Positions 7,898 to 50,690 of a DNA stretch of 64,000 bases are shown here, piece by piece. The stretch's first letter is position 1. The number at the start of each line of letters is the position of its first letter. The stretch lies in assembly GCA_011939005.1 (NCBI GenBank), contig GCA_011939005.1_4858.1. One strand, 5' to 3'. Made by a program: the position numbers and the translations under genes. The notes beneath the pieces were generated by a model. That model was not told the origin of the DNA and did no database searches. It saw only the letters and a program-made list of their open reading frames with translations. This stretch comes from a phage.

Positions 7898-8813
7898 CGG
7901 TAAACGCCTCATCTTTTACAGTAAGGGAACCGTTTACTTCGATTTCAGCGGCGGTCATGTCTGCTTCTTTAACGAATATACCGTCCGCGTTCAGGAAACC
8001 CTTACGGTCTTTGATTTCATCCCACGCCAGAGAGAAACACTGTTCCAGAGTCATATCGTACGCATTAGCCAGCGCATTGGCGTATTCGACCATCTGCGCG
8101 AAGTGACATTCGATCATTACCGCGTCGCTGTTCTCGAAGTGTTTATATTCGAGTTGCTTAGCTGAGTCGATGCCGGCTTGATCCCAGATGTAATCAACAG
8201 CTGCTGTGAGATGGAAACGCATTTTGTGGAACAAGTAATGACTGTTCCCGGCGTGTGGTTTCTTTGAACGTGCGTCGTTGACGTATGTGCTGATATCGGT
8301 TGAGTCAAACTTAATGAGTTCCATCAAGTTAACCAACACGACCAGAGCATCACCGATACCGTCCATGATGTAACGACGTTTGTTTTTACTGATACCGGTT
8401 GCCGCTTCACCGTCTTCTTCGTAGAGTTTGGTGGCTTGGCTATACCAGACGCCGTTATCCAGAATACCACGCGCTTTAGACCAACCCATAACGTTAGTAA
8501 TACATTGTGGGATGGTGTACAAAGGTACGTAACGCGGACGATCAACCGTACCACGATACTCGACACCTTCCAACGTCCACGGCATTTCGAAATCATTTAT
8601 TTCCAAACGATGGTCGCCTGTGAAGACTTTACCTTCGACGTAAGTGTGACCGGTTTCACTGTTCACGCACAGGGTGTACAGTTTCTCAAAGGACCACGGT
8701 TTAACAAACTGACGTTGGCAGAATCCAGCCAGAAGCTCATTAATCTGTGCCAGGTACTGGTTAGGTTCAACAATAACGTTATACGGAATCTGGATAGTGA
8801 AACGATCGCCCAT
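7872..8813 (-). CDS. hypothetical protein; C-terminal half possibly MazG-like all-alpha NTP pyrophosphatase
   Basis: 313-aa ORF, ATG with RBS aaggag; MazG assignment rests only on an acidic helical segment (GIGDALVVLVNLMEL) and is weak. Confidence 0.55.
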   Translation of the reverse strand: MGDRFTIQIPYNVIVEPNQYLAQINELLAGFCQRQFVKPWSFEKLYTLCVNSETGHTYVEGKVFTGDHRLEINDFEMPWTLEGVEYRGTVDRPRYVPLYTIPQCITNVMGWSKARGILDNGVWYSQATKLYEEDGEAATGISKNKRRYIMDGIGDALVVLVNLMELIKFDSTDISTYVNDARSKKPHAGNSHYLFHKMRFHLTAAVDYIWDQAGIDSAKQLEYKHFENSDAVMIECHFAQMVEYANALANAYDMTLEQCFSLAWDEIKDRKGFLNADGIFVKEADMTAAEIEVNGSLTVKDEAFTDGEETVHG

Positions 8814-8830
8814 TTTGATAGCTCCTTAAA

Positions 8831-8864
8831 CAAAAAAATAACTAGGGTGTCCATATGGACACCC
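8831..8864 (-). terminator. rho-independent terminator
   Basis: Perfect palindrome agggtgtcca-ta-tggacaccct (8843-8864) with A-run 8831-8838 on plus strand (U-run on minus transcript). Confidence 0.55.
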
Positions 8865-8875
8865 TAATACGTATT

Positions 8876-9064
8876 TTAAATCTTGCACGCACCACCGGTG
8901 CAGTTGTCGTCGTCTTTCGACGGGTCAACGCCACCTTCCACACCTGCATCCGGGTCAAGTCCAGGGATAACCATCTCGTCATCCGGAGACATGTTTACAT
9001 CCGCACTTAACCCATCACGATACATGAACGTTGTGGCTTGCCCACGACCGAGTTCTCCAGCCAT
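8876..9064 (-). CDS. small acidic hypothetical protein
   Basis: 62-aa Asp-rich ORF, ATG with RBS gaggaaa, fits gap between neighbours. Confidence 0.35.
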   Translation of the reverse strand: MAGELGRGQATTFMYRDGLSADVNMSPDDEMVIPGLDPDAGVEGGVDPSKDDDNCTGGACKI

Positions 9065-9076
9065 ATTTTCCTCTAC

Positions 9077-9556
9077 TTAATTAATCAGGTGTATCACAAC
9101 GTCTGTCGTTACTACGTCGACCAGACTGCGATAGATTTTATCGTAACTGAACTTGTTGAAGAAGAAACCCGCTTCGTCGACAATAACCAAGCCGAATTTC
9201 TCGTAGCCGGATATACCAGCACCCGTCGCGCGTTTCCAACCCTCGGGCAAGTAGTTACAGTGTACGGTCAACCAACCGTTCCCGGCAGCCTTTTCATGGA
9301 ACTTCTCCACTACTTCGTTTCGTAACGATTCATTGTGGACCAGATACAGAACGCTGCCGTGGAACTTTGCTGACATATCAACGGCGTGTGTTGTAACGCC
9401 CTTCTGACGACCGGCACCGTAACGGATGGTACGGAACTCACTCAGTGCAATATGCGGTAAAAAGCCACAGCTGCGGGCTTCATCGGAGTCCAGTTCGATA
9501 AGACCTTTGGACAGTTCTTTTACCACGGCACGATAATCGATCCGAGTTATAGACAT
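9077..9556 (-). CDS. hypothetical protein with NTPase-like motifs
   Basis: 159 aa; Walker B-like GLVIVDEAGFF and degenerate P-loop-like GAGRQKGVTT; no canonical GKS/T. Confidence 0.5.
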   Translation of the reverse strand: MSITRIDYRAVVKELSKGLIELDSDEARSCGFLPHIALSEFRTIRYGAGRQKGVTTHAVDMSAKFHGSVLYLVHNESLRNEVVEKFHEKAAGNGWLTVHCNYLPEGWKRATGAGISGYEKFGLVIVDEAGFFFNKFSYDKIYRSLVDVVTTDVVIHLIN

Positions 9557-29769: not shown

Positions 29770-30249
29770 TCATTGCACAAGGCAACTACTTTTGTGCCGT
29801 TCGTAGGCACGATTAAAAGACTCTCTGTCTTCGCGATAGCCGCGAATGAGAGACTTAATCTGTCGTGACAAATCACGACTAATGTCTTGAGGGCTACGAG
29901 AACCAGGGTCGAGATATATCCCGGAGGGTATACCATGAAGAGTGGGGCGAATAAACTCTTCACAAAGCGGTGCGGTCATCGGGGTGTGCCACCCTTTAGC
30001 TTCTGCATAGTTGTTTACTGACTTAGCGTACAGATAAACGTAATAAGCATAAGCGTTCACATCCGCAACAAACATTTTCCCTGCCAGCTTTTTCGCCTCA
30101 GGACTGTTCCCACCGTTATATACTGGTGGGTGTTCTAAAGGACGAAAAGGCCAATCTCCGGTTGAGGAGTAATCTGGGTCTACGTGACGGATGACCCCAG
30201 GGCATCCTGTCAACAATAGCACCAGTATCGCCACCAAAAATAACTTCAT
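29770..30249 (-). CDS. putative lipoprotein
   Basis: 159 aa; N-terminus MKLFLVAILVLLLTGC has signal peptide with lipobox LTGC; ATG with RBS gaggag overlapping end of upstream gene. Confidence 0.55.
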   Translation of the reverse strand: MKLFLVAILVLLLTGCPGVIRHVDPDYSSTGDWPFRPLEHPPVYNGGNSPEAKKLAGKMFVADVNAYAYYVYLYAKSVNNYAEAKGWHTPMTAPLCEEFIRPTLHGIPSGIYLDPGSRSPQDISRDLSRQIKSLIRGYREDRESFNRAYERHKSSCLVQ

Positions 30250-30258
30250 GTATGCTCC

Positions 30259-30768
30259 TCATGGATTATTAAGCGTCTTGATAATCTCCTGTCGGAAATC
30301 GTTTGCCGCCTGCGACCCCACTGGGCGAGAAGCCGCCTGGTGTTTCTTGGCAGGCGGGCTAGACGGATTTAACGGTGCCTGTGGTGTTACCGGCTTGAGT
30401 TCTTCAGGCGGAACCGCGGCCCCAGTGCCTGTCCCTGTTGGAGATTTGGTACCATCATATGGCGATCGAGAACCCAGGCATGTGAAGAGACGATCGTACA
30501 GCTTATTGTTCTCCACTTCGCCATGATCGGACTTCTCTTTTAGCTCCTTATAGGATATCTCCAGATACTGAGTACGCGATTGGACGCTAACCAGTGTGTG
30601 GTATTGAACAATATAGGCATATGAGACAAATGCAGAGAACGCGACCAGTGCCACTATCACTAGTGTCACTATCTTCCCGGCTCGTGTTACTTTCTCCCCC
30701 TCGCCCGGTTTAAATGCTTCCCACAGCATCTGTAAGAATGGAAGCAGTTTGAAAACTGATGCTATCAT
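30259..30768 (-). CDS. membrane protein with Pro-rich C-terminal region
   Basis: Track start 30774 is GTG; ATG at 30768 has RBS gaggtg. Transmembrane segment IVTLVIVALVAFSAFVSYAYIV, then Pro-rich tail. Confidence 0.5.
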   Translation of the reverse strand: MIASVFKLLPFLQMLWEAFKPGEGEKVTRAGKIVTLVIVALVAFSAFVSYAYIVQYHTLVSVQSRTQYLEISYKELKEKSDHGEVENNKLYDRLFTCLGSRSPYDGTKSPTGTGTGAAVPPEELKPVTPQAPLNPSSPPAKKHQAASRPVGSQAANDFRQEIIKTLNNP

Positions 30769-30792
30769 GCTCACCTCGGAGAGTTTTTAATT

Positions 30793-43126: not shown

Positions 43127-43255
43127 TTGCTTAATCCTTACGGGTAATAGTCGATTAAAAAGGACCCTGCGGCTAAGTGTTGGGGAGATCACCGCAGGGC
43201 CAAAGTGAGATGGGTCGTCATCTCACGTTATAACATCTGTCTGAAAACTTTTCGG

Positions 43256-43639
43256 TTACTGGTCGAGCGCTATTGAACCACGCACTTCGCCTTGTTGTTC
43301 AATAACCAGGAGGCGCTGTTTGGTTTTCGTATTGTAAGCGAGCGACGCGCGAAGCGTCGGGTCGCACGTTATTGTCTCTACCGGCACAATCTCTTGTGCC
43401 TTTGAGTTCAACAGAAAGTAGTAACCTGCCGGACAAGTTTCCTCGCCCTTTGCGTGGACTAGGATGTACTCGTCGTGCCGGCTGACTTCTTCACATCTAC
43501 CATCGTCGCCAGTACAGACTTCGAATGAAGGCGGGTTGTACTGATACGGTGTGCCCGGCAGTAAATCTTCTACGCTGGTTGTAGCTGAAGCGGAAGCGGT
43601 CAAGAACACCGCCGCGATAATACCCATAAATCCACGCAT
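43256..43639 (-). CDS. secreted Cys-containing protein (paralog family member 1)
   Basis: 127 aa; signal peptide MRGFMGIIAAVFLTASASA; motif ETCPAGYY; ATG with RBS aaggaaa. Confidence 0.5.
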   Translation of the reverse strand: MRGFMGIIAAVFLTASASATTSVEDLLPGTPYQYNPPSFEVCTGDDGRCEEVSRHDEYILVHAKGEETCPAGYYFLLNSKAQEIVPVETITCDPTLRASLAYNTKTKQRLLVIEQQGEVRGSIALDQ

Positions 43640-43652
43640 GTTGTTTCCTTAC

Positions 43653-44063
43653 TTAAAAGTCGAGTTTATTGATGCCTACGTTTTTCTTAATCGTAGGGTC
43701 GTACATGATAACCGTCAGGGCATTGTCGCCTGGGTCGCGAGTAAACTCGGCAACGGCTTCACCACTGCAGGCTTGGTTATCATTATAGTTCATGGATTCG
43801 GCTTGCCCGGTTGCCATGTTAATAACCCCGTATTCAGGGTCGCCACATGCGACACCGCCCATCGTTTTCACTAACAGGTAACGGTTGTTATCGGACATCG
43901 CAACGATCTGGCAGCTACCGCCTTGTACGTCAGAGTTCTGGCACCAGAACTGTCCGCCGTATTCGTGATCGTTAACAACTTTTGGTAACTCGATACTTCC
44001 AGCGCGAGCGAAGAAGCTAATGGCCAGAGTAGCAAGTAAAACTGGTAATAAAAAATGTTTCAT
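43653..44063 (-). CDS. secreted Cys-containing protein (paralog family member 2)
   Basis: 136 aa; signal peptide MKHFLLPVLLATLAISFFARA; motif VACGDPEY; RBS gaggtg. Confidence 0.5.
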   Translation of the reverse strand: MKHFLLPVLLATLAISFFARAGSIELPKVVNDHEYGGQFWCQNSDVQGGSCQIVAMSDNNRYLLVKTMGGVACGDPEYGVINMATGQAESMNYNDNQACSGEAVAEFTRDPGDNALTVIMYDPTIKKNVGINKLDF

Positions 44064-44085
44064 AATAGCACCTCAATTTTTTGAG

Positions 44086-44577
44086 TTATTCTGAATAGTC
44101 GATTGTTTTGATGGTTTCCATACCGTAGTACATAGCGATGGAGGCCAGAGTTTTGGTATCAGGTCGCTGTACAAAACCGGCCCTGAAATCTTTGCTGCAA
44201 ATTTTCTCCACTGATAGTTCATCACGATTAGGGATAAGCCATAACGCGTCACCGTTGTGACGGTCGACTGCACCCCACCAACCACCTGGGCAATCTTTAT
44301 CGCCCGGACGGTGTACGATAGCGACACGTCCGTTGAAGGATATGTCAACTACACGACACTGTTTCTTAAGCAGCTTACGCGCATTGCACCAGAACGGCTT
44401 ATCATTAAGATTGATGGTGCGGGTATATGCTGGAATGCTGCCGTTAATACTGCCCTGGAACCCGCTGAATTCGTCAGCGCGTGCCTTAGAAATCCGTAGC
44501 CCAACAACAACTGCCATCAACAGCACAGTAAAAAGCACCACCTTAATCAGGTGGTGATTAACGTTATTGCATTTCAT
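44086..44577 (-). CDS. secreted Cys-containing protein (paralog family member 3)
   Basis: ATG at 44577 (RBS ggaga) gives N-terminus MKCNNVNHHLIKVVLFTVLLMAVVVGL; motif KDCPGGWW. Confidence 0.5.
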   Translation of the reverse strand: MKCNNVNHHLIKVVLFTVLLMAVVVGLRISKARADEFSGFQGSINGSIPAYTRTINLNDKPFWCNARKLLKKQCRVVDISFNGRVAIVHRPGDKDCPGGWWGAVDRHNGDALWLIPNRDELSVEKICSKDFRAGFVQRPDTKTLASIAMYYGMETIKTIDYSE

Positions 44578-44965
44578 TTTTGATATCTCCACGAATGAGG
44601 GTGATGCGACCAACGAGCACATCGTTGTGATAAAAACTCACAGCAACCAGATCTGGCAATTCCAACGGCGATACGCTGACCGAAGTGACTTTTGGTTGAT
44701 CGCACGATATGTCGATTAATCGCTGATACATTTTCAGTTTCTTATCAGCGATAACCAGCCCTGTGCAGTTCTTACCATCCGTCAGTTTGTAGATTTGTAA
44801 CTGTTCGACCTCACGCATCAGTTCCGGTTTTTCATTCGGTGCAATGCCATAATCCGAATCAGCTGATGTGTATTCAGTCACGTCTGGCTTATCGAAAGCA
44901 TAAGTTGCTGCGATACCACATGCGGCCAGAACTACTACTGCTTGTAAGAACTTCTTGATAGTCAT
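44564..44965 (-). CDS. putative lipoprotein (paralog family member 4)
   Basis: 133 aa; signal peptide with lipobox VVLAACG; motif KNCTGLVI. Confidence 0.5.
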   Translation of the reverse strand: MTIKKFLQAVVVLAACGIAATYAFDKPDVTEYTSADSDYGIAPNEKPELMREVEQLQIYKLTDGKNCTGLVIADKKLKMYQRLIDISCDQPKVTSVSVSPLELPDLVAVSFYHNDVLVGRITLIRGDIKNEMQ

Positions 44966-44990
44966 GTTTTACTCTATAGTCGATTGGTTT

Positions 44991-45020
44991 AAAAAAGAAT
45001 AGGCTACCCGGAGGTAGCCA
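44991..45020 (-). terminator. rho-independent terminator
   Basis: Stem taggctacc / ggtagcc(a) with loop cgga; A-run 44991-44996. Confidence 0.5.
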
Positions 45021-50480: not shown

Positions 50481-50690
50481 ATGAGCATTCGTGAAATCAC
50501 CGCAGGCAGCGACGTTTCTGGTCTGGTAGAAGCAGGCACCGTTCAGGTTTCTGGACTGAGCACCGTTACCGAAGTTACCGAAGCGCTGGCTAAGAAAGCC
50601 GAAGCTGAAGGCGGCGTAGCATTTAAAGTTACCGCTTGCGGCGGCAACAACAAAATGTTCGGCAACGCCATCTATTACGTAAACGCGTAA
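50481..50690 (+). CDS. DUF1471 (YdgH/BhsA/YjfY)-like small protein without signal peptide
   Basis: 69 aa; VSGLSTVTEVTEALAKKAEAEGGVAFKVTACGGNNKMFGNAIYY fits the enterobacterial DUF1471 pattern; an in-frame stop lies immediately upstream of the ATG; RBS ggagataag. Confidence 0.6.
   Translation: MSIREITAGSDVSGLVEAGTVQVSGLSTVTEVTEALAKKAEAEGGVAFKVTACGGNNKMFGNAIYYVNA

Follow-up and report, generated by a model that had tools for sequence, protein, structure and literature searches.

Among the small proteins that phages, lytic ones included, make and send to the host envelope are those for superinfection exclusion, with T4 Imm and Spackle, T5 Llp and the Cor proteins of phi80 and N15 going to the inner membrane, the periplasm or the outer membrane. 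Llp and Cor are lipoproteins, and exclusion proteins bind a receptor, an injection component or the tail lysozyme. Work on nucleus-forming jumbo phages has centred on the cytoplasm, that is, on the phage nucleus, protein import and the early vesicle, and a 2026 review on the biology of jumbo phages nowhere uses the words periplasm, lipoprotein, secreted, signal peptide or superinfection exclusion. On the bacterial side, Escherichia coli K-12 makes YfjS and YafY, inner-membrane lipoproteins of Pfam family PF20494 that are carried on CP4-57 and CP4-6, and YafY overproduction activates the Cpx response (PMC6538781). Here, a 64,000-nucleotide stretch of contig GCA_011939005.1_4858.1 (the window) was analyzed and found to come from an SPN3US-like jumbo phage (Seoulvirus). 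At 43256-44965 on its minus strand lie four consecutive genes, designated A to D, which belong to an undescribed, narrowly distributed family of predicted exported proteins in phages and mobile elements.

In this region the DNA is 96-98% identical to Salmonella phage SPN3US and E. coli phage vB_EcoM_EC001 (EC001), both of the genus Seoulvirus and each ~240 kb. The layout of four consecutive minus-strand genes given in the initial annotation of the window was confirmed as open reading frames (ORFs): gene D, the first of the operon (44564-44965, 133 amino acids [aa]), gene C (44086-44577, 163 aa), gene B (43653-44063, 136 aa), and gene A (43256-43639, 127 aa). They are the orthologues of SPN3US_0180 (gp180), SPN3US_0181 (gp181), SPN3US_0182 (gp182), and SPN3US_0183 (gp183), respectively, every one of which is annotated as a "hypothetical protein", and D was 98.5% identical to its SPN3US counterpart in a tblastn comparison. 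The genes are tightly packed, with spacers of 13 nucleotides (nt) between A and B and 22 nt between B and C, while D and C overlap by 14 nt. A longer ORF of C, reaching to 44622, was disfavoured as the start because a Shine-Dalgarno sequence, GGAG, stands before the ATG at 44577, which is also the start annotated in SPN3US and EC001. Codon differences were mainly synonymous (synonymous to other, 26:9 against SPN3US and 23:7 against EC001), indicating that the four genes are real and apparently under purifying selection.

At the N-terminus of all four proteins, a basic n-region is followed by a hydrophobic core free of charged residues and by a small-x-small cleavage site, and the proteins passed a home-made rule that asks for a basic n-region, an uncharged h-region of ~8 to 15 residues, small amino acids at -3 and -1, and a residue other than Pro at +1. 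The predicted signal peptides comprise aa 1 to 19 of A (cleavage site ASA/T), aa 1 to 21 of B (ARA/G), and aa 1 to 23 of D (44897-44965, minus strand; MTIKKFLQAVVVLAACGIAATYA/F, with the signal peptidase I site TYA/F); in C, counted from the annotated start, the site ARA/DEF follows residue 34, after a long n-region and a 15-residue hydrophobic core. The same rule passed 29 of 35 members of the A/B/C family and all 18 of the D family (47/53 in total), and just 3 of the 61 other gene-like ORFs of the window, one of them an obvious lipoprotein. Among the homologues, the sequence of the N-terminal 20 to 35 residues is free to vary while the hydrophobic core and the A-x-A site are retained, as expected of signal peptides, and in C-type orthologues DEF or NVE comes straight after the retained A-x-A. 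The N-termini of the AlphaFold2 (AF2) models of B and D are of low predicted local distance difference test score (pLDDT). A signal peptide on each of the four proteins, as proposed at the outset, is thus borne out by the rule and by the properties kept across homologues, and the gene structure, paralogy, conservation and Sec-type export signals of the four can be regarded as shown with high confidence. Uncleaved N-terminal anchors, which would tether the proteins to the inner membrane facing the periplasm, are distinctly improbable. C, whose 15-residue core is followed by R, K and R before A-x-A, and D, whose uncharged N-terminal stretch is unusually long (18 residues), would suit such anchoring, but small-x-small sites stand at the expected distance in nearly all members, A-x-A is retained in the C type, and in A and B the hydrophobic core is not long enough to form a stable transmembrane helix.

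The lipobox LAAC noted in one of the four proteins was also recovered. With the PROSITE-type rule {DERK}(6)-[LIVMFWSTAG](2)-[LIVMFYSTAGCQ]-[AGS]-C, Cys at 15 to 35 and K/R in the first 7 residues, D qualified through ...FLQAVVVLAAC, with Cys16 (codon 44918-44920), K4, and K5, and no lipobox was found by this rule in A, B or C. Among 18 representatives of the D family, however, only this lineage (1/18) agreed with the rule: the other D orthologues carry S, V, L or I in place of Cys16, or a Cys in a noncanonical context (LATC, IAVC, AAVC). Conservation of the lipobox Cys, which would be expected if lipidation were needed for function, was therefore not observed in the orthologues, and the TYA/F-type signal peptidase I site is, unlike the lipobox, conserved. 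As the lipobox is absent or noncanonical in 17/18 D-family representatives, lipidation would be a trait of the SPN3US lineage and not of the family, and within that lineage the chances for and against lipidation of D appear evenly balanced. By the +2 rule, Gly after the lipid-modified Cys implies sorting to the outer membrane and Asp implies retention in the inner membrane; D has Gly at +2.

The overlap of lipoprotein gene D with gene C, which has a long N-terminal hydrophobic segment, raises the alternative that the two form an o-spanin/i-spanin pair in a lysis cassette. An i-spanin combines an N-terminal transmembrane segment with a coiled-coil periplasmic domain, and the o-spanin gene is embedded in, overlaps or lies immediately downstream of its gene (PMC12894885). 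Here the order is reversed, with the lipoprotein gene preceding C; the D model is all-beta and C shares its family with B, whose model is all-beta too; and 17 of 18 D-family representatives lack the lipobox. Moreover, a better spanin-like pair lies elsewhere in the window, at 29770-30774. It consists of a 171-aa protein with an N-terminal transmembrane segment and a Pro-rich tail (30259-30774, minus strand) and, directly downstream, a 159-aa lipoprotein with the canonical lipobox LLTGC and a Pro-rich N-terminal region (29770-30249, minus strand), and it probably represents a two-component spanin pair, which has no spanin annotation in the records examined. A spanin role for gp180/gp181 was consequently rejected on gene order, beta fold, the unconserved lipobox and the better pair, and we consider it extremely improbable.

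The common origin of A, B and C is clear. BLASTP linked A with C (8e-6) and B with C (4e-8), and cross-matches to one another's PHROG families tie the three together (A, PHROG 5248 with a cross-match to PHROG 8968; B, PHROG 8968; C, PHROG 17072 with a cross-match to PHROG 8968), so that they are clearly paralogs by sequence. When 35 A/B/C-family members were aligned, four cysteines proved to be invariant or almost invariant (positions 42, 49, 69, and 92 in A; 41, 51, 73, and 99 in B), and C likewise has four in its mature part. D (PHROG 9424) gave no pairwise BLASTP match to A, B or C, and in a plain hidden Markov model (HMM) search mature D scored -0.8 bits against the A/B/C profile, a value equalled or exceeded by 908 of 3,000 shuffles. 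When 11 D-type and 35 A/B/C-type sequences were compared as profiles, however, hhalign gave a probability of 92% and E = 7e-7 over 78 columns, with the two mature-part cysteines of D (C67 and C88) in register with Cys3 and Cys4 of A/B/C; E was 4e-4 after removal of the signal peptides, while reversed and column-shuffled controls never did better than E = 0.009. Structure prediction agreed. The AF2 model of B (mean pLDDT, 85; >90 over most of the mature domain) has one short helix and seven strands, and that of D (mean pLDDT, 80; ~90 for the mature domain) has seven strands in the same order, being all-beta outside the N-terminal signal helix except for a short C-terminal helix. In Foldseek searches of BFVD, the best matches of the B and D models beyond their own orthologues were members of the other group, reciprocally, with probabilities of 0.99 to 1.0 and template modelling scores (TM-scores) of 0.42 to 0.55.

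Profile-profile comparison, reciprocal structure matches and conserved gene order together place D in the family as a remote paralog from which the N-terminal Cys1-Cys2 hairpin has been lost. Since these two cysteines are missing together in D, the disulfides may pair as C1-C2 and C3-C4. The initial annotation had described the four products as paralogs that share a C[PG]xG[YW][YW]-type motif and additional cysteines. Alignment and the AF2 models of B and D show that the mature domains are related rather than unrelated, although this follows for A, B and C from BLASTP and cysteines and for D only from deep profiles, structure and gene order. The motif proved narrower than described: it holds for the A and C types, with CPAGYY of A strongly conserved across genera, but not for B (CGDPEY) or D (CTGLVI), and what all four have in common is Cys3 followed by a turn and a strand. 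Similarly, the additional cysteines apply to A/B/C, with four conserved, whereas D has two only in its mature part.

The distribution of the family in phages is narrow. A and D were each found in 64 of 50,697 phage records, with the same breakdown by organism name, and all 64 records are SPN3US-like phages of Salmonella, Escherichia, Proteus and Erwinia. An all-against-all BLASTP resolved four orthogroups, and four genera share the order D-(C)-B-A, with two small genes and an SMC-like gene following downstream: Seoulvirus and Erskinevirus have the four genes of the array, Machinavirus has the array without C, and Wellingtonvirus has the array plus an extra paralog. The conserved orthogroups and order indicate that the duplications predate the four genera, with every copy retained. 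The same gene order was seen in two metagenomic contigs, L014 and L046. In the former (SRR25891147_533801; 27-1617), a distant tandem array of four genes encodes proteins of 116, 119, 136, and 130 aa, with the D type first and the B and A types following in the usual order; the product of the second gene has two cysteines and no BLASTP match. An HMM search of 1.84 billion representative proteins returned just 40 at E ≤ 0.001. As a side observation, the SPFM records LR535901-LR535913 (SPFM1, 5-10, 14, 15, and others) matched the region solely as ~40 short pieces and have fragmented gene calls, which suggests that these assemblies carry many indel errors and that truncated proteins pollute homology searches.

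Because three to four paralogs always occur together in fixed order in four genera, and the D profile weakly matched the designed WD40-like WRAP-T proteins (E = 0.006), one might imagine a single hetero-oligomeric periplasmic assembly, for instance a pseudo-beta-propeller built of two-blade subunits, which would fit an exclusion role and a host-directed role alike. Machinavirus lacks C, and the bacterial islands examined show a single copy, both of which speak against such an assembly, and we judge it improbable.

Beyond the phage clade, relatives of the family occur in bacterial chromosomes, two of them in CP4-57-type islands. The B-type protein P0026 is 45% identical to B of the window and 45-47% identical to the phage B proteins, standing closer to B of SPN3US and Asesino than Machinavirus B does, and its gene was located on the chromosome in 78 of 5,426 complete E. 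coli genomes. Its CP4-57-type island encodes AlpA, a YfjP-like GTPase, a YfjR-like WYL regulator, DUF932, antirestriction, RadC and CbeA/CbtA proteins, and P0026 itself adjoins an OLD-TOPRIM/UvrD gene pair and an Mrr-like gene and lies downstream of a YfjR orthologue (50% identical). The C-type protein P0065 lies between orthologues of YfjR (60% identical) and YfjT (48% identical; L015, 428-2168), and in E. coli K-12 (L016, 7704-9616) ypjK-yfjS fill the same yfjR/yfjT slot. The yfjR-yfjT slot of CP4-57-type islands is thus variable, and the slot that P0065 shares with yfjS is a positional equivalence, not evidence of homology. Separately, the C-terminal half of another protein, P0044, is P0026-like, while its N-terminus is off-family and transposase-like by eye; some genomes may thus have an interrupted version of the island gene.

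Homology to YfjS and YafY was assessed by sequence. PF20494, for which the gathering score is 27 bits and YfjS itself scores 228.6 bits, matched neither A to D (E up to 1) nor the 35 plus 18 family members (E up to 10). The A/B/C HMM aligned weakly to mature YfjS (11.0 bits, nominal P = 1.8e-5), a score reached by 0 of 3,000 shuffles (maximum, 9.2), and hhalign of YfjS against A/B/C was likewise weak (E = 2.4e-4, 44% probability), placing both cysteines on Cys3 and Cys4; against D, E was 0.05. Attempts at a deeper YfjS/YafY profile, by a genome-contig profile scan and plasmid tblastn, yielded solely copies at least 88% identical, and YfjS/YafY tblastn against phages gave nothing relevant. YfjS/YafY are the closest named family and possibly a distant relative, with homology to the phage proteins only suggestive.

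These island relatives bear on the idea that the genes are moron-like cargo exchanged with enterobacterial CP4-57-type islands, serving bacterial physiology as relatives or positional analogues of YfjS/YafY and having no role in the lytic cycle. The location of P0065 between YfjR and YfjT orthologues, exactly the K-12 position of ypjK-yfjS, the location of P0026 downstream of a YfjR orthologue, and the weak alignment of YfjS to the family with both cysteines in register are all compatible with it. Conservation of four orthogroups and their order in four strictly lytic genera, with mostly synonymous differences, points instead to a phage function; moreover, the family is confined within the phage collection to the SPN3US-like clade and has merely 40 representatives among the 1.84 billion proteins. 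Such cargo is accordingly an improbable explanation.

The chief rival to an exclusion role is a host-directed one, in which the proteins would bind or inhibit host periplasmic enzymes or sensors (peptidoglycan hydrolases, proteases or envelope stress), keeping the envelope intact over a long cycle or tuning lysis. The predicted periplasmic location and the small, disulfide-bonded, binding-type fold would suit it, as would the Cpx activation seen when YafY, a possible distant relative, is overproduced (PMC6538781). In addition, two bacterial homologues adjoin the same kind of exported protein. In L008, a 16.4-kb contig of E. coli GCA_031915785.1, the stretch 8001-9414 encodes P0026 followed by a 312-aa exported protein (8476-9414), a homologue of which stands beside a family member in L013 (BLASTP, 1.5e-21). 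The N-terminal half of the L008 protein matched the lysozyme inhibitor model Ivy below threshold (E = 0.004 to 0.007; 17 to 18 bits against a cut-off of 21), and its C-terminal half matched the family weakly (10.6 bits; shuffle maximum, 10.0) with four cysteines in register, so that it may be a fusion of an Ivy-like and a family domain, a lead rather than a result. Both of these matches are below threshold, however, the L013 homologue had no Ivy match, and the four phage proteins matched none of the Pfam/NCBIfam models for Ivy, PliC/MliC and PliG. A host-directed role thus seems unlikely, albeit the most serious of the alternatives.

Database searches placed the family outside described ones. 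A to D had no matches in Pfam or NCBIfam and only families of unknown function in PHROGs; PADLOC models did not match A to D or P0026 at E up to 1; and searches of the PDB by sequence profile gave nothing meaningful. With a confident model of its all-beta mature domain and no Pfam, NCBIfam, PADLOC or PDB relative, the family is undescribed. A GenBank note of a "PAGK domain (PF15284)" on the B-type orthologue of pSal-SNUABM-04 was rejected, as current Pfam does not reproduce it at E up to 10. The SPN3US virion-proteome papers do not mention gp180-183 in their main texts, and the sole trace in the supplements of the 2016 SPN3US paper that were searched is a table entry "183", where gene 183 is set beside proteins from two other genomes. 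Since Sec export is incompatible with virion assembly in the cytoplasm, and the proteins go unnamed in those main texts, a nonvirion role of gp180-183 is inferred.

Taken together, we propose that in this SPN3US-type nucleus-forming jumbo phage the four genes D-C-B-A form a discrete operon, whose products would be four ancient paralogs of one small all-beta domain of ~100 to 130 residues. Each protein would be made with a Sec signal peptide, cross the inner membrane and fold in the periplasm, where DsbA-type disulfides, which probably form, would stabilize it (two in A, B and C; one in D). A, B and C would be released as soluble periplasmic proteins; D would be lipid-anchored in the SPN3US lineage, with Gly at +2 directing Lol-dependent sorting to the outer membrane, and a plain secreted protein in the other genera. 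As nonvirion accessory proteins, gp180-183 would act by binding, which is probable as no catalytic motif is present, at the infected cell's envelope, in conflict between phages or between phage and host. Secondary phages may be blocked from crossing the envelope, through superinfection exclusion or protection from lysis from without, with each paralog having its own target, and B-type and C-type copies would have moved between these phages and CP4-57-type islands. Exclusion is favoured because several small proteins exported by lytic phages (T4 Imm and Sp; T5 Llp) are known to serve in it, because the separate retention of each paralog suggests distinct targets, and because copies have been taken up by defence-rich bacterial islands. 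Receptor masking, superinfection exclusion and inhibition of periplasmic host factors, offered at the outset as candidate functions, stay candidates, none of them with a match to a known exclusion, inhibitor or defence family.

Several points weigh against this proposal. The rule used to predict export is home-made; C has three basic residues (R, K, R) between its hydrophobic core and the predicted cleavage site and could stay membrane-anchored; the location in bacterial islands is circumstantial for a defence-type role; and searches of Pfam, PHROGs and PADLOC and with profiles revealed no similarity to known exclusion, lysozyme/protease inhibitor or defence-system proteins. The envelope-level exclusion or protection role is a tentative hypothesis, if the favoured one, and the proposal as a whole, functional commitment included, is possible rather than probable. 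A more elaborate version, in which gp180-183 form an envelope self-protection/exclusion module whose domains assemble into a propeller-like hetero-oligomer, captured by islands as anti-jumbo-phage cargo and with YfjS/YafY as distant relatives or positional replacements, is doubtful. The diversified, envelope-targeted family with one lipobox described initially is upheld by alignments, profiles, structure prediction and comparative genomics, except that lipoprotein status is lineage specific. Its being unusual in a lytic phage does not extend to exported proteins as such, for which phages T4 (Imm, Sp and RI) and T5 (Llp) offer precedents, but does apply to a conserved four-paralog array with relatives in bacterial islands.

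Elements of the surrounding DNA (all on the minus strand) are in line with a discrete transcription unit, as D-C-B-A is tightly packed and has terminator-like hairpins on both sides. Upstream, a terminator-like hairpin followed by a T-run (45002-45019) lies between gp179 and D and marks the upstream edge of the four-gene unit. Just 3' of the A stop, a stable hairpin with an 11-bp stem followed by CUUUUU (43162-43202; RNA folding) is probably the 3' end of the transcript, and an additional hairpin stands at ~43203-43224; the RNA fold of 43150-43255 reached -34.5 kcal/mol (z = -4.1), with 0 of 200 shuffles as good. A further terminator-like hairpin, CACCACCTGATTAAGGTGGTG followed by CTTTTT (44536-44556), falls within the 5' end of C right after the D/C overlap and may attenuate transcription from D to C or be due to chance. 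No sigma-70-type promoter was found upstream of D on the coding strand, as expected of a phage that uses its own RNA polymerases. The 10-mer AATCGACTAT has three exact copies within 1.9 kb, located 10 nt 5' of the D ATG (44976-44985), 31 nt 5' of B (44095-44104), and 20 nt 5' of gp184 (43147-43156), and two of these directly follow a hairpin and T-run. It is exact at just two of the three positions in SPN3US and EC001 and has no copies in more distant relatives; given this lack of conservation beyond close relatives, no promoter role is claimed for it, although it could be a promoter or regulatory element.

Several neighboring genes were also recorded. Right after the array in Erwinia phage Wellington, gp203 (L005, 4679-5059) has a DGHHR motif, by eye only reminiscent of ParB/sulfiredoxin-type domains, and no signal peptide. 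In the window, a 69-aa ORF without a signal peptide lies at 50481-50690 on the plus strand, where SPN3US annotates DUF1471 (YdgH/BhsA-like), and a YdgH_BhsA-like gene adjoins the array in the metagenomic jumbo-phage contig L046. DUF1471 proteins are normally periplasmic.

A conserved operon of four exported paralogs would mean that nucleus-forming phages also invest in the envelope compartment. Being compact, the operon lends itself to deletion or to isolated expression in a host, and the bacterial homologues in or beside the yfjR-yfjS-yfjT slot provide a comparative handle on an uncharacterized part of the E. coli K-12 genome. If exclusion is the role, phage envelope genes would have been reused by mobile islands, and if the module version holds, the y-ome genes YfjS/YafY would gain a first testable function. 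Even if gp180-183 are ordinary accessory binders, they make up a cleanly defined new protein family, one whose fold is modelled with confidence and for which no relative has been solved.

Compared with described systems, the locus resembles several in part. Like the spanins of lambda (Rz/Rz1) and phiKZ (gp141/gp141.1), D/C pairs a lipoprotein gene with an overlapping gene that has an N-terminal membrane segment, but it differs from them in its reversed order, its all-beta rather than coiled-coil structure and its unconserved lipobox. The inhibitors Ivy (PF08816), PliC/MliC and PliG are small, disulfide-containing, periplasmic or lipid-anchored proteins that act purely by binding, and an Ivy-like gene adjoins a family member in L008, with a homologue in L013, although its Ivy match is below the Pfam threshold. 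T4 Imm/Spackle, T5 Llp and phi80/N15 Cor serve as the working analogy for mechanism; unlike gp180-183, which have no Pfam/PHROG match to them, the exclusion proteins are encoded by single genes and not by a four-paralog array. The proteins closest to the family are YfjS/YafY. They differ from D in having Asp rather than Gly at +2 after the lipid-modified Cys, and the phage family has no PF20494 match and a marginal sequence link to them. On the other hand, they are likewise small exported proteins with ~125 mature residues on mobile elements, their two cysteines (...C-x-G-G-x-Y-Y.../...C...) align with Cys3 and Cys4 of the phage family, their C-terminal G-R-hydrophobic strand resembles that of D, and the slot of YfjS between yfjR and yfjT is taken by a C-type member of the family in another bacterium.

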